Sequence record: SRR22947725_4314
Strand: one strand, 5' to 3'
Length of the DNA stretch: 64,000 nt
Shown here: positions 8,000 through 16,749 of the stretch, in pieces
Position numbering within the stretch: the first letter of the stretch is position 1
How the letters are laid out: each line of letters starts with the position of its first letter
Notes under the pieces: model-generated
Seen by the model: only the letters and a program-made list of their open reading frames with translations
Told to the model about the DNA's origin: nothing
Database searches by the model: none
Position numbers and translations under genes: made by a program

Positions 8000-10900
8000 C
8001 TACTGCCGTCGACCGCTGAACAGATCGTTGCTCACGAACGAGCCGAAAATCTCTTCGAGGTCTCCCATCACCGGGTTCATCGAGGTCTCAAGGGCACCGA
8101 TCACCAGAGTGGGCTCAACTCGCTCGTCGAGCAGCTCGGGCCCAAACCTTTCGATGTGGTCGTGAACGAATCTGAGAGCTGCAGCTTGGGCGGTCTCGAC
8201 GTATCGACGAAGCTCAAGAGGCGCAGCCGTGCTTGAGTCACACATGACGCGCAGTCCGCGTGAGTCCGCGACAAAACGCGAGACTTGCGGATGTGCCGCA
8301 GAGCAGAGCAGCTCAAATTCCAACGCGCGTTCGTAGATCGGATTGGAGTTGCCGAATACAGCGTCGCGACCGAAGCAGCTCAATGCTGTGGAGCCCAGTT
8401 CGTTTGCTGCTGCGGTGGTGACGTAGTAGAGACCTGTCATCTGCTGATCGATGAGTGGGCTCAACGCCTTCTGGGTCGTGCCGGAATAGCCGAGATCCAC
8501 GAATCCGAGGTGTTCGTCCGGACCGATGTCGAGAAAGCTGAGGTATGCCCTGAATGCCGCCAACTCGCGCCCGCCGTGGGCCGCGATGTCGTGGCGGAAT
8601 TCGTCGAGTTGGTCTCTCAGCCATGCTGCGTCGCGTGGAAGTGAGACCGGGGTGGCGCCGAGTCGAGCGCCGCGGTCACCAGGAAGCGTGAAGCCGAGTC
8701 GTACGTCGAGAAGGTCACTGACGGAACCGTTGCTGTAGTCGGCAGCACAGACGTTGTCGAGGTGTTCTCCGTCATGCTGCGAGAGAGCCAGAGCGATCCG
8801 TCGAGACATGAAGAAGTAGTCGGCACGCGGGAGATCAGCCGGAAGGAATGGCCGAACACGGCGAAAAACCTCAAGAGCGAGGTGTCCGTCGCGCGCGGTG
8901 AATAGAAGGCGATCGATCTTGTGGTCTCGTGCCGTGTGTGTGAGCCAACTCACGAAACCTAGGGTGATTGGGCCGAGCACCCCGTATCCGAATTTCTCCA
9001 TTGCGGTGGTCTGAGGAGATTCTCCTGTTGGCCCCGGTCGTTGGGAGCCTGAGAAGAGGGCTGCGAGGCCATGCCCGCCGACCAGTTGCGTTCCCGTGCG
9101 AACCGCTGGCGCCAACTGCGAAGTGTTGACCCCCCAAAAATGGGCGACTGATCCAGGGGAGGGAATGTGAAACGTATTGATGCCGCGATCAGACGCCTGT
9201 TGAATGTCGGAGAATTCGTTATCGCCAATATGAAGCCAGCGACCAGGGGCGGGTGTTTCGAGCTCGCGGACGAGGTCCCACATGGAGCCGGTGTCTTTGC
9301 GCGCTCGACAGGCATTCGAGACGTAAAGGTCGTCGAGGAGATCACCTGCGCCGATCTCTGTCAGCAGCGCCTCGATGGCCTGAAGCGGTTGTGTCGTGTC
9401 CGTCATGAGGACGTACCGACGCGGCGGACCGTCAAGCCCACTCCGTTTCGATCGGTCATGCAGGAGCTCATCGATCAGCCAGGTCCGTGGAATTGCGACT
9501 CGATGTTCTAGATCCAACTCGAGCCGCTTGAGCTGGTTCAATCCTTCGGCTTGGGAAGGATGCTCGGCGCACGCTCGTGAGTAGATCTCATTCAGTGTCA
9601 CGTCGCCGGAAATCTCATTGCCTCGACGGAGTTGAGATTCTGACTCTCGACGGAGTTGAACTAACTGGTGCCCGGAGTGCGGCAGACGATTTAATACCGA
9701 CGGTGCTGCATCGAACTGGCGACTGAGCACGTCGAATAGTGCATCAGGGTCGAGTGCTGGACGGAGTAGGAGTGTGTCGAAGAGGTCGATGCTGACAAGG
9801 TCGGCCGATTGCAGCGCTGCGCGCAGTGCTTCGGGGTCCGACGCACCGAAATCGGGAGCGTTGCTGAGCGACCAATTCCGTCGCCATTGTGCGGCGGAAT
9901 AGTCGAACTCGACCGTGTCGAACCCAACAGACGCTGCGGCAGCAGGAATTGTTCGTTCGATGGCGTGTGCGAGCGTCCTGTCGGTCTGGCCATGTTCGCG
10001 ATCGAAGTCGCCGACGGTCAAACCGAGATCGAGGAGTGGTCGGAGGGCATCGACCTTTGCCCAGAACATTCCACCGACCGGGTACATGACGTAGCCGTGG
10101 GCTTGGCGATCATCAACACCGAGGCGTTCGTACAACTTGGCACCCACCGGGCCGTTGCCGAGCCAATGGTTGCCCCAATAGGGGAAGTGTTCCCAGTTCG
10201 GAGCCTGGACGACGCCGACGGTCGGGTCGTCGGCGAAGAGGCTCAGAATCGCGTCGACCCCCGGAGCCGACGGCAGGAGTGAGGTGACGAGATGGTTGCG
10301 CCAATCTGATTTCTCGTCGCCCGAGTACAGCGACTTCTTGGTGTGGAGGTGAAGCAGGTAGTCGTGATCGCGGACCTCTTCGGCGAACGAGCAGAGTAAC
10401 GGTGCGAAATTGCGACCTCGGTTCGGCGCCACTTTGACGATCCGAGATTGGTCCGGCCCAAGGACCGTGTCGATGATTCGATGTGCCTTGGACGCGTCGG
10501 CCCTACAGGTAACGCTGACGAGCAGCACCGGTGGAGCGGGCAGCAAGGGAAGCCGGCGGAGCAGTGACGGAAGAACGTCGAGGTAGTAGGCGTGGACCAT
10601 GACGACGATGTCCAGGTCCGCGAGTTCGAAGGGAGCTCTCACCCGGTGTTGTACGAGCTGTCGGCTGGCAGGCTGACCGATCGGTGCCACGCTGACGACT
10701 CGAGGGCGAATCAACTGATCATTCGCAGCGGCGTCCTGGTCGAGCCAATGGTCGAGCGGATGCTGATCGATGCCCGCTGCAGCGAGCTGCGACTGATAGT
10801 CGGCGTGGTCGAACATTGGGCTCGGGTTGTGCCCGGTGCGGTAGTAGTGCACCAGCGGTTGCATGCTGTCGAAGCTGGTGGCGTCGGATGCGTGTCTCTG

Positions 10901-11305
10901 CTGGTACCAGGCCTCGTCGAACCAACGTGACTCGATCGCTCGAAGGCCTGGGGCGACGACGTCGTGCACCTTCATTTGGGTCGCTGATGACTTAGCGGCG
11001 ACAACAGCTCGGTGAAAGTGTGTGAGGGCGGCCCCGCGCGCTTCGGGGTTCATGATGAGATACGCCGCCGTGTCGAAATCTGGACCGGGATCTCGTCCCT
11101 CAGCCTCGCCGTGGTTGAGGAAATGAACGAGTGGTTCCACGCCAGCACGCCTCACGTCGTCATTGGCGCCGAGGTACCACGTCGCATCGAAGTACGGCGA
11201 GATGGATATTGCGCGCCGGCGCCAACTCTCGACTATGGCCAACCTGATGCGTTGTGCGGTGGCTGTTGGGCTCGCAAAGCGGGCAAGTGATGCGATTCTG
11301 CTCAC
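8000..11305 (-). CDS. Multidomain RgpF (rhamnan synthesis F)-like plus HAD-like protein
   Basis: HAYYLD, NRGRNFAP, LHLHTKKS, GGMFW, TLAHAIER (RgpF-like); SIDLFDTLL, HIGDNEFSD, FVDLGYSGT (HAD-like); N-terminal FD..WY repeats. Confidence 0.85.
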   Translation of the reverse strand: MSRIASLARFASPTATAQRIRLAIVESWRRRAISISPYFDATWYLGANDDVRRAGVEPLVHFLNHGEAEGRDPGPDFDTAAYLIMNPEARGAALTHFHRAVVAAKSSATQMKVHDVVAPGLRAIESRWFDEAWYQQRHASDATSFDSMQPLVHYYRTGHNPSPMFDHADYQSQLAAAGIDQHPLDHWLDQDAAANDQLIRPRVVSVAPIGQPASRQLVQHRVRAPFELADLDIVVMVHAYYLDVLPSLLRRLPLLPAPPVLLVSVTCRADASKAHRIIDTVLGPDQSRIVKVAPNRGRNFAPLLCSFAEEVRDHDYLLHLHTKKSLYSGDEKSDWRNHLVTSLLPSAPGVDAILSLFADDPTVGVVQAPNWEHFPYWGNHWLGNGPVGAKLYERLGVDDRQAHGYVMYPVGGMFWAKVDALRPLLDLGLTVGDFDREHGQTDRTLAHAIERTIPAAAASVGFDTVEFDYSAAQWRRNWSLSNAPDFGASDPEALRAALQSADLVSIDLFDTLLLRPALDPDALFDVLSRQFDAAPSVLNRLPHSGHQLVQLRRESESQLRRGNEISGDVTLNEIYSRACAEHPSQAEGLNQLKRLELDLEHRVAIPRTWLIDELLHDRSKRSGLDGPPRRYVLMTDTTQPLQAIEALLTEIGAGDLLDDLYVSNACRARKDTGSMWDLVRELETPAPGRWLHIGDNEFSDIQQASDRGINTFHIPSPGSVAHFWGVNTSQLAPAVRTGTQLVGGHGLAALFSGSQRPGPTGESPQTTAMEKFGYGVLGPITLGFVSWLTHTARDHKIDRLLFTARDGHLALEVFRRVRPFLPADLPRADYFFMSRRIALALSQHDGEHLDNVCAADYSNGSVSDLLDVRLGFTLPGDRGARLGATPVSLPRDAAWLRDQLDEFRHDIAAHGGRELAAFRAYLSFLDIGPDEHLGFVDLGYSGTTQKALSPLIDQQMTGLYYVTTAAANELGSTALSCFGRDAVFGNSNPIYERALEFELLCSAAHPQVSRFVADSRGLRVMCDSSTAAPLELRRYVETAQAAALRFVHDHIERFGPELLDERVEPTLVIGALETSMNPVMGDLEEIFGSFVSNDLFSGRRQ

Positions 11306-13270: not shown

Positions 13271-13368
13271 CAACGACGTGACGCTCTGCGCCACGTAGCA
13301 ACTGTCTGCCGCCCGGCTCACTGTGTGGGTCGGGCGGTTGCGCGTCTTGACTCGTATCATTGCTATCG

Positions 13369-13830
13369 ATGGAGCCCGTAACGATTGTCTTTGCTGTCGC
13401 GTCGGCGTTGATCGTGTTTGCGATCGCTGCCGCGTCGGTTGGGCGAGAGGCGCACCGGCTCGATGCTGTGGCACCGCGGACGGTGTATCTGCTCGATGAA
13501 GCCACGGACTTTGTCTGTGACCGTTTGCCGGAGGAGAGCCAGGCACGCCTGACCCCCGAAGAGGTCCAGCAGCTGTTGGTGTTTCACATGCAGTGGCTGC
13601 ACTCACAGGGGTTGCAGCCCGATGACGTGGTGGATGTCCCGCAGGGCATCGACGAGACCCTGGTTGTTACCGAGGATTCGCTCACGGCGTATTTGCTCGG
13701 AGAGTCTGATCGGAACAACGTCGATTTGCTCGATGATGTCGATGCCGTGCATGTCGTCGAAGCGCACCTTGCGTACTTCGAGGCGATTGGTGCGGTTGGT
13801 CCGCAAGCGCCGCTTGATGACGTGATCTGA
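13369..13830 (+). CDS. Hypothetical membrane-anchored protein
   Basis: N-terminal TM helix followed by an acidic domain; TATCAT shortly upstream of the ATG. Confidence 0.75.
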   Translation: MEPVTIVFAVASALIVFAIAAASVGREAHRLDAVAPRTVYLLDEATDFVCDRLPEESQARLTPEEVQQLLVFHMQWLHSQGLQPDDVVDVPQGIDETLVVTEDSLTAYLLGESDRNNVDLLDDVDAVHVVEAHLAYFEAIGAVGPQAPLDDVI

Positions 13831-13846
13831 GAATTTCGAAATTCTC
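13829..13846. promoter_or_regulatory. Perfect 18-bp AT-rich palindrome
   Basis: GAGAATTTCGAAATTCTC equals its own reverse complement. Confidence 0.55.
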
Positions 13847-13918
13847 TGAAACCGGTCCGACATCGCCGTCGGCGGTGTGCTGAACTGTGCCCACCAGAGA
13901 GAGGAGGTGGTCCAGATA

Positions 13919-13963
13919 ATGCCAGACAGTTATTGCGGGATCCTGGAGGTGGTTGGCCGCTAG
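13919..13963 (+). CDS. Putative 14-aa peptide MPDSYCGILEVVGR
   Basis: AGGAGG at 13902-13907; frame conserved in the second copy. Confidence 0.55.
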   Translation: MPDSYCGILEVVGR

Positions 13964-14100
13964 GTCAACAGGCTGGATCGCCTGGCGAATTTAACGCCAA
14001 CCCCGCTGCAACTCATCGCCGCAAGTGATCCCGGTGGCGTGACGACGACATCGAGTGATGTCGTCGGCTCGTGATGAGTGCAGTCCCAAACAGTTGTGTT

Positions 14101-14134
14101 CGACGCCCGAGTGCCACCCGGTGCTCGGGCGTCG
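14101..14134 (+). terminator. Strong hairpin closing RNA copy 1
   Basis: CGACGCCCGAG / CTCGGGCGTCG perfect 11-bp stem, extendable; no long U-tract. Confidence 0.6.
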
Positions 14135-14212
14135 TCGCGTTCGCAGATGTCATTGCTGGTGTGTCAGCGCGCAATGAGTCCTGAGGGCTGCCGTCCAGTA
14201 ACTTTGCTGTTG

Positions 14213-14437
14213 ATGGATCATCACCCGAAGTTCGAAGAGAGCCGATTCCTGGGCGACAAGCGCACGCAGCTCGTTTACGACTTGCAATTGTGGGACGACG
14301 ACGACGTCATCAACGAGTTCGTCGGTCTCGGCGTCGCGCTGAGTTTCAGTCCGGATGAACTGCCCGAAGCCCGTAATCGCGGCTATACGCTGGCAACGCC
14401 CGGCAAGAAGCGTATGCGCCGCGCTCCACGAGCCTGA
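14213..14437 (+). CDS. Small hypothetical protein (74 aa), copy 1
   Basis: MDHHPKFEESRFLGDKRTQLVYDL...ARNRGY; paralog at 16842 with mainly synonymous or conservative changes. Confidence 0.85.
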   Translation: MDHHPKFEESRFLGDKRTQLVYDLQLWDDDDVINEFVGLGVALSFSPDELPEARNRGYTLATPGKKRMRRAPRA

Positions 14438-14452
14438 GGCGGCCATCCGATC

Positions 14453-15238
14453 ATGCCCGGGATGAACGAGCGGTTCGATTCGAACGGCCTGTCTCTCGCC
14501 TGTCATGTCGCCCGTCCACCAGGTGATGCTCGGCCCGGACCGGGCGTCATCCTGTGTCACGGCTTCCCAATCGGGCCGCTCGACGCGCAGCTGTCCGGCG
14601 GAACATTTCCCCAGCTGATGGATCGCGTCGCCAGCGGACTCGGCTCCGTGGCAATGACCTTCAATTTTCGGGGTTGTGGGGATAGCGCGGGCGACTTCTC
14701 TCTGCAGGGTTGGGTTGACGACCTACGGAACGCCATCTCGCATCTTCAGAGCGTGAGTGAACCGGACGGTGTGATTCTGGTTGGTACGAACACTGGTGGC
14801 TCGATTGCGGTGTGCGTCGGTGCTGACGATCCGCGAGTTTGTGCGGTGGGGTTGCTGAGCCCACGAGCCGACTTCGATGACTGGGCAGATCACCCGCGTC
14901 GCTTTCTTGAGCACGCCCGCGAGATCGGTGCGATTAAGCAGCGCCAGTTCCCTGATTCGGTCGACGAGTGGGCTCGCGAGTTCCGACGATTTCGGCCCGT
15001 AGCGTCAGCTCGCCGGTTTGCGCCGCGTCCGATGCTGGTGATGCACGGTGAAGAAGACGACTCGGTACCGGTGTCTGACGCACGACAGTTGGTCAACGCC
15101 CATGGCGATGCTGAGCTGAGTTTGTTTGTCGGTGCCGGTCATCGTCTACGTCACGATCCGCGTGCTGTGGCGGTACTTCTTGGCTGGCTTGACCGTATGC
15201 GGTCGGTGACTGTGCACCCCGCCGCCGAGATCGTATGA
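14453..15238 (+). CDS. Alpha/beta-hydrolase-fold protein, copy 1
   Basis: ILCHGFP, FNFRGCGDS.G, GTNTGG elbow, HGEEDDSVP, GAGH. Confidence 0.9.
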   Translation: MPGMNERFDSNGLSLACHVARPPGDARPGPGVILCHGFPIGPLDAQLSGGTFPQLMDRVASGLGSVAMTFNFRGCGDSAGDFSLQGWVDDLRNAISHLQSVSEPDGVILVGTNTGGSIAVCVGADDPRVCAVGLLSPRADFDDWADHPRRFLEHAREIGAIKQRQFPDSVDEWAREFRRFRPVASARRFAPRPMLVMHGEEDDSVPVSDARQLVNAHGDAELSLFVGAGHRLRHDPRAVAVLLGWLDRMRSVTVHPAAEIV

Positions 15239-15621
15239 CTATCAGCCCGCGGGCTTTTGGGCGTGATTGTCGTTCAGCGGCTGCGGTCGATTTGGCTGAT
15301 ACGCCACTCGTGGGCAATTCGAACGATGAGTTCCAAACCATGCCAAGTCGACCAGCCCAACGTTTTGAGTGCGCGATCGGGGTTCGCATAGGTCGATACG
15401 TGATTGCCGGCGCGGCGAGCGACGACCGTGTGAGATACGGAGCGCTGAGCAACCGCTGCAGTGGGGTTGATCACGTCGAATACGGATGAATCCGTGTCAG
15501 TGCTGACGGGGCTGCGGTCGACTCGGGTCGTCTTGGAGTTATCGCAGCAGTGAGAAAATCTTCAAAGATGATCCCACATAGTGGTCCGCGATGTGCCGGA
15601 CCCGACTAGCGAGAGTAAAGC

Positions 15622-15837
15622 TGGTCCAGATGTTGCCAGACAGTCATTGTGGGATCCGGGAGGTGGTTGGCCGCCGGTGACAGTTGCCACGGGTCAACAG
15701 GCCGGATCGCCTGGCGAATACACGCCAACCCCGCTGTCTCTCATCGCCGCAACCGATCCCAGCGGTGTGTTCGAACCGAATCGATCACTCGATCGTCACG
15801 GCTCGACTCTCGGTGAGGGCAGTCCCAATCAGTGTGT
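15622..15837 (+). ncRNA. Unidentified structured RNA element, copy 2
   Basis: Homologous to 13909-14098; indels fall in loops and variable arms. Confidence 0.65.
15630..15680 (+). CDS. Putative 16-aa peptide MLPDSHCGIREVVGRR
   Basis: In-frame homolog of 13919-13963; SD absent in this copy. Confidence 0.4.
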   Translation: MLPDSHCGIREVVGRR

Positions 15838-16749
15838 GCGCGCTCGGGATGATGGTTCGGGGTAAGGGTGAGTGGTACAGTTCTCCGGTCGGTGCTGAAC
15901 CGTGAAGACCATCGGACTGGTCCACGACGCCGGCACCTTGCGGAGCAGACTCAACAACCCGACGCGGTTGGCCGTGCGGGCGCCGACTTCGAGCACGCGA
16001 CTGTGTCGGTTGGCGAACTGCTCATCGGTCGAGAGCCGTTCGAGTGAGTCCGCTAGTCGGCCGGTCTCGAATTCGGCGGCGTAGCCGTTGTCATCTGCCC
16101 AGTTCCGCACTCCGCTCAATGTGATCCAGTTGAGGGAGCGCCACAGATCGGACTCCTTGATCCGGGCAGGAAGCAGTCGTTCGGTCGCTGCCGGCCGACT
16201 GGGGACGAGGAGCACTCCGAAATGGGGCTCGTAGGGGAACGTGTAGTTCGGGCAGGAAAGGTACATCGTTCCGTCGGGCGCCAAGACCGAACCGACAGCA
16301 TCCATTGCGCCGCGCCAGTCGGGCACATGCTCCAGAACGTTCAGGGAGTAGATCAGGTCGAATTCGCCATGGGTGGCAGGGTCGAGCGATTCAGCTCCGA
16401 TGTCGAGGAGCCGGGGTGCCGGCTCGAACGGGGGAAGTGCCGCGCGGGTGGCACCGATGAACTCGAATGCTGACCCGACCGGTTCGAGCTCGACCACGTC
16501 GTAGCCCTGCGAGCACAGAAAGCCGGCAAAGAACCCGATCCCACTGCCGATCTCCAGGACCCGCGTGTCGGGCTGAAGGCGCGGCTCGATCAGTTCGAGC
16601 GCGACTCAGGACTCGTTGACGTAGGTCGAGAGTTGTTCGGTTGCCTCCCCGAGTGGGATCTCGAGCGACCGAGCGATCGACTCTGCGATGTCGTCGAGGG
16701 CCAATGCCTCGATCGCGGCGCCCAGTTGATTGCTCAGATCTGTCGTCAT
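15829..16749 (-). pseudogene. Class I SAM methyltransferase interrupted by in-frame TGA at 16606-16608
   Basis: ...YVNES*VALELIEPRLQPDTRVLEIGSGIGFF... continues in frame into ORF 15829-16497 (NVLEHV, PNYTFPYEPHF). Confidence 0.75.

Follow-up and report, generated by a model that had tools for sequence, protein, structure and literature searches.

A 64,000-nucleotide (nt) stretch of DNA from sequence record SRR22947725_4314, referred to here as a whole as the window, carries on its plus strand, between a gene at 13360-13830 and a gene for a protein of about 74 residues at 14213-14437, a short open reading frame (ORF) embedded in a segment with pronounced secondary structure. Judged by its sequence, the genome is Ilumatobacter-like, the protein encoded just upstream (13360-13830) being 99% identical to a protein of an Ilumatobacter metagenome-assembled genome (MAG). 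An earlier note on this DNA had described a 14-codon ORF behind an AGGAGG Shine-Dalgarno (SD) sequence, a second SD-like site within the ORF, a stop codon overlapping a hairpin, complementarity between GGTTGGC and a downstream GCCAACC, and a second copy of the ORF that has lost its SD sequence. All of these features were found (Table 1), with AAAGCTGG replacing AGGAGGTGG in the second copy. The note had interpreted them as a cysteine-containing micropeptide and as the mutually exclusive pairings of an attenuator. The conserved and probably translated micro-ORF withstood the comparison with related loci, but neither the cysteine peptide nor the attenuator did. What lies at this locus is in all likelihood a relative, from the Acidimicrobiia and probably transcribed independently, of the RNA Ms_IGR-5 (Rfam family RF02471), into which the micro-ORF is built.

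Conservation of the micro-ORF and of its peptide

Using a profile of the two copies present in the window, the element was found in 26 of 51 related loci from Ilumatobacteraceae and other Acidimicrobiia, always on the strand of the upstream gene. Twenty-eight Ilumatobacter-type copies were pooled with 30 RF02471 loci, yielding 58 copies; these are related sequences, and the counts given for them are not independent. Two of the RF02471 loci (L071 and L081) belong to genomes flagged as unpublished; they are counted, and no conclusion rests on them. In addition, two pattern scans looked for an SD block together with GAGGTG and, 9 nt beyond it, a TRR triplet; each scan matched at least 120 stretches, of which 80 were listed.

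In the alignment of the 28 Ilumatobacter-type copies, a near-invariant 5′ block ending GGAGGTGGTCC is followed by a spacer of variable length and by the start codon, which is ATG in 27 of the 28 copies; in the second copy of the window the ATG is located one codon earlier. The ATG is followed by exactly 15 variable nucleotides and then by a block that is invariant down to the third codon positions and ends with TAG. The ORF comprises 14 codons in 24 of the 27 copies that retain the SD sequence. At two loci (L002 and L005) an insertion turns TAG into CGG, with the stop codon one or two codons further downstream, and the same insertion is present in the second copy of the window.

When all 58 copies were considered, a canonical start codon 0-14 nt past the SD sequence followed by an ORF of 9-17 codons was observed in 47 copies in the frame of the micro-ORF, as compared to 0/58 in each of the two other frames, which served as a control. 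GAGGTG is present in 58/58 copies, and NTG occupies the start position in 57/58. The fifth codon after GAG (GAG+5), exactly 9 nt behind GAGGTG, is a stop codon in 55/58 copies (TAG in 45, TGA in 6 and TAA in 4); the remaining three copies harbor CGG at this position and a stop one or two codons later. Without translation, it would be difficult to account for this switching between TAG, TGA and TAA at one and the same position. Likewise, each of the 30 RF02471 loci contains a mini-ORF of 12-14 codons that ends 9 nt past GAGGTG, although two of them comprise 9 codons only when counted from the first canonical start; the codon at the start position is TTG in 12, ATG in 5, GTG in 4, CTG in 8 and ATA in 1 of these loci. 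In the set collected by the pattern scans, a canonical start was present in 194 of 210 distinct cores, and 187 of these 194 have 11-15 codons. The spacing between GAGGTG and the stop codon is imposed by the scan pattern and is therefore not evidence in that set.

The encoded amino acids show a different picture. Codons 2-6 of the 27 Ilumatobacter-type ORFs tolerate 4-7 amino acid variants each, and their summed entropy is similar at the first, second and third codon positions (5.3, 4.9 and 5.8, respectively). These codons are A/U-rich, with a GC content of 0.41 and a GC content at third positions (GC3) of 0.36. In codons 7-14 of the same ORFs the third positions are constant save for one synonymous change. 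The fixation of codons 7-14 even at third positions points to a constraint at the level of the RNA, where they are frozen because they form the helices P1, P2 and P3 described below. Hence, a test for an excess of synonymous changes gave no sign of purifying selection on the peptide in these ORFs, with codons 2-6 varying alike at all three positions and codons 7-14 being fixed. The cysteine that the earlier note had regarded as a feature of the peptide is found at the same codon in 3 of the 27 ORFs, and a cysteine at any codon in 9. On the other hand, the check that the note had named, conservation of frame and start across homologs, came out in favor of the ORF: the homologs retain its start, its frame, its length and its stop together with a very strong ribosome-binding site. 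Taken together, these comparisons show that selection maintains the start, the frame, the length and the stop, but not the amino acids, and the codon pattern is best described as a constraint at the RNA level combined with an unstructured initiation region, rather than as the imprint of a selected peptide.

Complementarity to the 3′ tail of the 16S rRNA

The SD sequence is part of a longer purine-rich segment that is complementary to the 3′ tail of the 16S ribosomal RNA (rRNA). When aligned with the last 18 nt of the 16S rRNA from a related complete Ilumatobacter genome, it forms 16 Watson-Crick and 2 G-U pairs. This 16S rRNA ends CTGGATCACCTCCTTTCT, which is assumed to be the mature 3′ end by analogy with Gram-positive 16S rRNA. 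The full 18/18 pairing is possible in 29 of the 58 copies, and at least 16 contiguous pairs can form in 54. Moreover, with the exception of two of the 58 copies, the only substitutions within the purine tract are exchanges of A and G at positions facing U, which is the pattern expected if the tract pairs with the 16S tail. The 13-nt core of the complement is confined, in two Ilumatobacter genomes, to this RNA, to the antisense strand of the 16S rRNA and to three other places, which lack a fitting ORF and by appearance are intragenic. The complement begins about 5 nt from the 5′ end of the RNA, and the start codon follows 3 nt behind it. The pairing spans the entire free tail of the 16S rRNA and may be the longest natural SD pairing possible.

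Fold of the RNA

The positions of the helices are given in Table 1. Folding of the full 258 nt resulted in a z-score of -3.33, and only 1 of 200 shuffled sequences folds as well; short pieces folded alone gave weak z-scores (-1.68 and -0.48), so that only the full 258 nt stands out. In an alignment of 55 sequences (A3), which was built with our covariance model R1 and hence is fitted to the structure of the model itself, 94.7% of the cells are paired, as compared to 29-47% with slid partners, and 19 of 25 pairs show changes on both sides. R1 was derived from the 28 Ilumatobacter-type copies and the structure proposed here.

Helix P1 joins the 3′ end of the SD sequence to codons 7-8. Its cells are paired in 100% of the cases in the 28-sequence alignment and in 96% in the 55-sequence alignment. 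In the pattern-scan set, GGAT precedes GAGGTG in 21 of 99 copies with a GATCC-type SD sequence versus 1 of 111 with a GGTCC-type SD sequence, a difference that is suggestive only; the P1 motif counts are ambiguous because Streptomyces-type copies use a shifted register.

The complementarity between GGTTGGC and GCCAACC corresponds to helix P2, whose 5′ strand lies within the ORF. Six of its seven pairs change on both sides in the 55-sequence alignment, and seven differently compensated strand pairs can be read directly (e.g., in L025, L030, L054, L060 and L070). In line with this, 176 of 209 pattern-scan copies contain, further downstream, a 9/9 complement to the 9-mer with which P2 starts, as compared to 32% for control 9-mers. 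Helix P3, which contains the stop codon and corresponds to a stem of the RF02471 consensus, changes on both sides at all 7 pairs (5 plus 2). P3 lies inside P2; the two helices are therefore nested and compatible, and both covary. The proposed attenuator consequently fails on its defining feature, as the pairing that was thought to exclude the stop-codon hairpin is the native helix that encloses it. Another hairpin, formed by CAGGC 13969-13973 and GCCTG 13980-13984, would compete with P3; it was set aside without a pair count of its own, P3 being preferred because it covaries throughout the phylum and matches the Rfam stem.

Helix P4 and hairpin Hd were predicted independently by RNAalifold from 24 sequences, with compensatory changes in 12 of 20 predicted pairs, and in the 55-sequence alignment 6/6 pairs of Hd covary. 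The Hd loop GATCCC is complementary to GGGATC at 13937-13942 within the ORF, with one covarying position, and also to the loop of P3, where position 13978 covaries with 14028. Further downstream, the terminal hairpin likely represents, according to the predicted folds and to an RNA contig that matches as far as 14139, the 3′ end or the terminator of the RNA; the terminator scan did not call it because it lacks a T run. We also considered read-through of the TAG codon or a second ORF behind the internal SD-like site. As inspected by eye, the indels in the hairpins are not multiples of three and there is no conserved start, and this possibility was dismissed. A sub-threshold match to the Streptomyces RNA Scr6925 at 14034-14137 (27.6 bits versus a cut-off of 50) coincides with the variable and the terminal hairpin; it is probably due to generic GC-rich hairpins only and was discarded.

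Table 1. Features of the RNA and of its second copy (all on the plus strand; R1, covariance model of this study)
Feature	Position	Description
-10-like hexamer	13882-13887	TGAACT; putative promoter element
Small RNA, copy 1	13893-14139	about 250 nt; 5′ end near A13893, 3′ end past the 14101-14134 hairpin
Complement of the 16S rRNA 3′ tail	13898-13915	18 nt, 18/18 pairs; extended SD, includes AGGAGG
SD sequence	13902-13907	AGGAGG, read from the sequence
Helix P1	13909-13942	GGTCC 13909-13913 with GGATC 13938-13942; start and codons 2-6 in the loop
Micro-ORF	13919-13963	ATG at 13919; 14 codons and TAG (13961-13963), MPDSYCGILEVVGR; start, frame, length and stop conserved, peptide of codons 2-6 not
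Internal SD-like site	13945-13952	GGAGGTGG; inside ORF codons 9-13, with the 5′ strand of P2
Helix P2	13951-13957 with 13996-14002	GGTTGGC with GCCAACC; 5′ strand in the ORF
Helix P3	13958-13964 with 13981-13987	CGCTAGG (stop codon) with CCTGGCG; loop TGGATC 13974-13979
Helix P4	14005-14084	14005-14010 with 14079-14084; 14013-14017 with 14073-14077; encloses Hd and the variable hairpin
Hairpin Hd	14018-14022 with 14034-14038	loop GATCCC 14027-14032; inside P4
Variable hairpin	14038-14052 and 14057-14071	arms of a hairpin inside P4
Terminal hairpin	14101-14134	15 bp, GC-rich, no U tract; in minimum-free-energy and centroid folds
Small RNA, copy 2 (paralog)	15604-15772	ORF 15630-15680, MLPDSHCGIREVVGRR and stop; R1 score 128.2 bits

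Relation to the Ms_IGR-5 family

At gathering level, no Rfam match, RF02471 included, was obtained in the whole 64,000-nt window. With permissive filters, RF02471 aligned over its full length with 13893-14089 at 21.3 bits (E 0.033). As this score is below the cut-off of 45 bits, the window RNA is not a member of RF02471 by the rule of Rfam, and it is filed here as a divergent relative. R1, which scores 164.8 bits on 13892-14044, matched all 30 RF02471 loci at the same place and on the same strand, with E-values of 5.7e-12 to 0.012; 19 of these loci are above the Rfam cut-off. The matches of the two models are reciprocal, and for this reason the window RNA is treated as a divergent relative of RF02471. 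Within the phylum, RF02471 matched 49 of 151 genomes at E<=0.01, 19 of them above the cut-off, and none of 14 model-organism controls. Moreover, the stems of the RF02471 consensus, namely the stem with the stop codon and the terminal stem around the hairpin with the GUCC loop, are represented by P3, P4 and Hd, all of which covary.

The two RNAs share their layout. Both begin with a 5′ purine tract and GGAGGUGGUCC, followed by a short ORF that ends 9 nt past GAGGUG; the stop codon lies in a stem, which is followed by GCGAAU, a helix forms between the 3′ codons of the ORF and a downstream CACC-type strand, and a hairpin with a GUCC loop comes last. The window RNA differs from Ms_IGR-5 in comprising 14 rather than 12-13 codons, in its own P2 sequence (GGUUGGC/GCCAACC), in an extra variable hairpin inside P4 and in a separate terminal hairpin. 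The Rfam model of Ms_IGR-5 annotates neither the ORF nor P2.

In Mycobacterium smegmatis, IGR-5 is located between MSMEG_5794 and MSMEG_5795; the accessible part of bioRxiv 10.1101/2021.12.14.472595 presents it as a validated, uncharacterised small RNA (sRNA) and reports its recovery as an NAD-capped RNA with a +1A start. Transcriptomes recorded under cold stress contain it as well (PMC10454040). Its expression has also been observed in two species of Streptomyces (PMC8079986, PMC8780764), and it gave rise to significant ribosomal reads in Mycobacterium abscessus and M. smegmatis (PMC4974804). A published ORF, 16S complementarity or function for an RF02471 RNA was not found in the searchable literature, which does not cover the original description of 2013, and a search with the peptide strings returned unrelated word matches only. 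On the basis of these comparisons, the window RNA can be regarded as a divergent variant of a family of unknown function that has been catalogued in Rfam ever since the RNA was discovered in M. smegmatis. The ribosome-centred design is new relative to the searchable literature, which treats the family as a non-coding actinobacterial sRNA.

Occurrence outside the Actinomycetota and likeness to CC2171

R1 matched 78 of the 80 loci listed for the first pattern scan, and its scores form a continuum between 175 and 16 bits. In five whole genomes with distant phylum labels R1 gave no match, a result that carries no weight by the search tool's own account. Labels outside the Actinomycetota were carried by 5 of the 80 matches listed for the first scan and by about 30 of the 80 listed for the second. 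Among these listed matches are loci labelled as Acidobacteriota (several orders), Methylomirabilota, Rokubacteria, Myxococcota, Thermodesulfobacteriota, Fibrobacteraceae (Fibrobacterota), Zixibacteria, Ignavibacteria, Eisenbacteria and Spirochaetia (Spirochaetota), as well as one Leptospira isolate; as the genomes are mostly MAGs, some of the phylum labels may be wrong. RF02471 was then applied to 25 loci with labels outside the Actinomycetota, of which 3 passed the cut-off and 8 more were matched at E<=0.1, with nothing found in 14. The loci that passed the gathering threshold (L138, L151 and L249) stem from MAGs labelled Acidobacteriota and Methylomirabilota. Both the description of RF02471 as 'Actinobacteria sRNA' and its taxonomic range appear too narrow.

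A comparable architecture is found in CC2171 (RF01867), an RNA of the Alphaproteobacteria. According to the accessible part of bioRxiv 10.1101/2022.01.24.477521, CC2171 is expressed in Caulobacter and Methylorubrum, its function is unknown and it is treated there as non-coding. Its 5′ end carries the complement of the 16S tail that is also present in the window RNA, here as a 19-nt motif. In 11 of 11 loci inspected (L339, L344, L363, L374, L332, L353, L402, L381, L333, L407 and L330), a GUG codon 2 nt behind this complement opens an ORF of 17-25 codons, which is longer than the ORF of the Ms_IGR-5 type. The first codons of this ORF pair with a segment in front of the terminator; a different part of the ORF is paired than in the Ms_IGR-5 type. 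RF02471 did not match any of the 11 CC2171 loci at E-values up to 1. In the reverse direction, RF01867 gave sub-threshold scores of 15-27 bits on loci of the Ms_IGR-5 type, and 15.2 bits on window positions 13891-13974, where the 5′ SD motif and the 3′ hairpin were aligned; with a threshold of 75 bits, the window RNA does not belong to RF01867. We regard the likeness between CC2171 and the Ms_IGR-5 type, as read from their sequences, as a resemblance of design and do not derive homology from it. CC2171 may represent a second family of the same design.

Transcript, gene context and second copy

Contigs from RNA libraries cover parts of the locus. One of them (X4 record 13, 269 nt) spans 13893-14139, one of its ends being 13893, and a contig of another study (X10 record 9) starts at 13894. 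Both coincide with the proposed 5′ end, which is a weak hint only, as contigs cannot prove ends; stretches of 13700-14300 without cover by RNA contigs carry no information on transcription. By eye, the 28-sequence alignment shows a TAnnnT- or TGnnnT-like hexamer at a constant distance upstream of the 5′ block. A consensus scan of 13780-14260 for sigma-70 promoters and terminators returned none, the consensus being uninformative for signals of the Actinomycetota type.

In 12 of the 26 Ilumatobacteraceae loci, the RNA is followed on the same strand by the gene for the protein of about 74 residues and by a hydrolase gene. In the window, the former (14213-14437, within the listed ORF 14078-14437) starts directly past the terminal hairpin and its product has no Pfam match; the alpha/beta hydrolase is encoded at 14453-15238. 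The GTG at 14078, with which the listed ORF begins, is part of the RNA; translation of the 14213-14437 protein probably starts at another codon. Outside this family the neighbourhood changes. Of 21 RF02471 loci, at least 11 are followed by a convergent gene, as judged by crude ORF calls, and in five genomes with different phylum labels the neighbours are unrelated, comprising an ECF sigma factor, an amidotransferase, a monooxygenase, a DNA methylase, a peptidase and a chemoreceptor.

One copy of the RNA per genome was found in the seven genomes checked; the copy number is judged from related genomes. The window harbors a second copy about 1.7 kb downstream, which shows 82% mean column identity to the first. 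A 22-nt probe matched this copy at 15636-15657 with 1 mismatch, as compared to 0 matches in 100 shuffles. Copy 2 lacks the -10-like hexamer and the complement of the 16S tail (14/18 pairs, longest run 8), it carries a 15-nt hairpin insertion after GGCCGC that replaces TAG, and it faces a convergent methyltransferase gene on the minus strand (15829-16497). The same kind of insertion is present in the sole copy found in L002 and in L005, and no second copy was seen in the available DNA of close relatives (L003). In view of these losses, the shared insertion and the single copy in L003, copy 2 appears to be decaying after a recent duplication or after import. Elsewhere in the window, a protein of 1101 residues with an RgpF domain (rhamnan synthesis) is encoded at 8000-11305 on the minus strand, upstream of an acyl-CoA dehydrogenase gene; it is unrelated to the RNA.

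Discussion

The explanation that best accounts for the data as a whole, and that we consider probable, is that the micro-ORF constitutes the translated 5′ half of a stand-alone, structured sRNA of about 250 nt, in which translation rather than the peptide is selected. Several observations weigh against this explanation or against the fold and identity on which it builds. First, a canonical start is missing from the expected site in 9 of the 30 RF02471 loci (CTG in 8, ATA in 1); either near-cognate starts are used there, or translation is dispensable in those lineages. Second, one RNA-library contig (X1 record 6, 13738-13903) crosses the proposed 5′ end, which could reflect read-through or DNA. 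Third, the ribosomal reads on IGR-5 have to be seen in the light of the authors' own remark, in the accessible text of PMC4974804, that footprints also occur on plainly non-coding RNAs such as 6C. Fourth, P1 is devoid of two-sided covariation in both the 28- and the 55-sequence alignment; the helix is invariant and therefore beyond a test by covariation. Fifth, the loop-loop and loop-ORF pairings, in which three sites changed jointly, go back to one event in the clade of the window, and this single event makes them weakly evidenced. Finally, the score of the window RNA with RF02471 remains below the Rfam cut-off, and the 55-sequence alignment carries the bias of the model that produced it.

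Among the competing explanations, docking of ribosomes without productive translation accounts for the data best. In this scenario, the tail complement would bind the 30S subunit, serving to protect the 5′ end or to titrate the anti-SD sequence, and the ORF would be a by-product of the fold. It would explain why the complementarity reaches the last nucleotides of the 16S rRNA, far beyond the needs of initiation, and why A and G alternate opposite U; the second GGAGGUGG in the RNA and the nine loci without a canonical start fit it as well. A precedent is the STAB-SD of Bacillus thuringiensis cryIIIA, which protects the 5′ end of the mRNA from exonucleases and, like the complement in the window RNA, is a long SD-like sequence close to the 5′ terminus whose pairing with the 16S 3′ end exceeds the requirements of initiation. 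However, the STAB-SD is located on a long mRNA and is not known to be followed by a start codon, whereas the window RNA has a start, an ORF of fixed length and a stop. A pure docking site would not need these features, i.e. NTG in 57/58 copies, a fixed stop of three kinds in 55/58 and a frame whose alternatives never offer an ORF. In addition, the start codon is surrounded by the unstructured loop of P1, which is rich in A and U (GC 0.41) and resembles an initiation site. Docking alone is therefore an unlikely explanation.

Alternatively, the product could be a functional peptide of 12-14 residues involved in signalling, enzyme binding or arrest in the ribosomal tunnel, with the fold of the RNA merely tuning its synthesis. 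The conserved start, frame and stop agree with such a peptide, and so does the Glu-Val pair that is encoded five and four residues before the stop in 58/58 copies. Moreover, lineages with distant labels, Leptospira, Eisenbacteria, Ilumatobacter and Mycobacterium among them, share a loose Asp/Ser-Ser motif at codons 3-4, and some of the third-position change in the Asp codon is synonymous. Yet codons 2-6 in the Ilumatobacter group show no excess of change at third positions (5.3/4.9/5.8) and accept 4-7 residues per site, while codons 7-14 are constrained at the RNA level. Where the C-terminal residues differ across phyla, they change together with the opposite strands of P2 and P3, and the last two residues, which would be placed beside the peptidyl-transferase centre, are the least conserved. 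Genes for modification or transport were not seen nearby in any lineage examined. A functional peptide hence appears quite improbable, and nothing specific speaks for an arrest or sensor peptide as suggested in the earlier note.

A cis-acting leader, in which termination at 14101-14134 would control the 74-residue protein and the hydrolase, is very improbable. It can draw on the same-strand homologs of both genes downstream of the RNA in 12 of 26 Ilumatobacteraceae loci and on the strong hairpin in between. This synteny is restricted to the Ilumatobacteraceae and is no wider than ordinary gene order at the family level. Copy 2 and at least 11 of 21 RF02471 loci face convergent genes, and the neighbours in the five other genomes differ wholly. 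Moreover, P2 and P3 are nested rather than exclusive, and no antiterminator pairing competing with 14101-14134 was found. Regulatory runs of amino acids are likewise lacking in the peptide: no residue is repeated, and codons 2-6 vary freely. In this respect the RNA can be compared to rnTrpL/peTrpL of Sinorhizobium, which, according to the accessible part of PMC6614838, arises from the attenuator upstream of the trp genes and encodes a 14-residue leader peptide with regulatory Trp codons. Both are RNAs of about 100-250 nt with a translated ORF of about 14 codons, but in the window RNA both regulatory codons and a regulated operon downstream are absent, and the peptide sequence shows no trace of being selected. 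That the frame is open by chance can practically be dismissed: although genomes of high GC content are rich in spurious ORFs (59 ORFs of at least 60 residues in 8 kb), none of the 58 copies offers an ORF in the other frames, the stop codons switch, the ORF is conserved in every family copy examined, and R1 scores spread from 175 to 16 bits contradict a single recent clone.

Taken together, a translation-dependent riboregulator ranks before docking without productive translation, which ranks before a functional peptide and, well behind, an attenuator. The locus 13919-13963 should accordingly be annotated neither as a gene for a cysteine micropeptide nor as an attenuator.

As to how such a translation-dependent RNA might work, we tentatively envisage a switch gated by translation. 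The selected trait would be the loading of ribosomes together with a short round of translation. Ribosomes would load with very high affinity through the complement of the 16S tail, and a ribosome running from start to stop would have to melt P1, P2 and P3. In this way, translation would switch the RNA back and forth between two states, a closed fold and an open form occupied by the ribosome; in the latter, the 3′ strand of P2 (CACC-type) and the GUCC-type loops would be exposed. Even more speculatively, the distance of 8 nt between GAGGUG and the last sense codon would allow GAGGUG to pair with the anti-SD sequence of the ribosome that is just terminating. The opened RNA might present its CACC-type strand and GUCC loops, resist exonucleases, or hold ribosomes. 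With regard to the output, our best guess is that the RNA acts in its own right as a riboregulator, or as an RNA that engages ribosomes, and that it reports the availability of initiating ribosomes or makes use of it, rather than yielding a peptide or controlling a downstream gene.

A further-reaching proposal, which is conceivable though doubtful, is that the RNAs of the Ms_IGR-5 type, perhaps with CC2171 as their alphaproteobacterial counterpart, form one widespread class of ribosome-docking micro-mRNAs. In such RNAs the 30S subunit would be captured by its whole 16S tail, 12-15 codons would be translated, and the ribosome would be held again at the stop codon by GAGGUG 8 nt from the P-site codon, so that the RNA could sense free ribosomes, form a sink for them or serve as a timer.

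With this analysis, a so far anonymous sRNA becomes a tangible example of an RNA that probably has to be engaged by the ribosome in order to function. Its ORF is welded into the helices of the RNA itself, a design that occurs once per genome in lineages labelled as many phyla. Genome annotation overlooks the ORF of this RNA everywhere and, in Acidimicrobiia as well as outside the actinobacteria, also the RNA itself. The finding bears on how bacteria sense or manage free ribosomes, and if the class is indeed widespread, the structure or activity of these RNAs would report the translational capacity of the cell.

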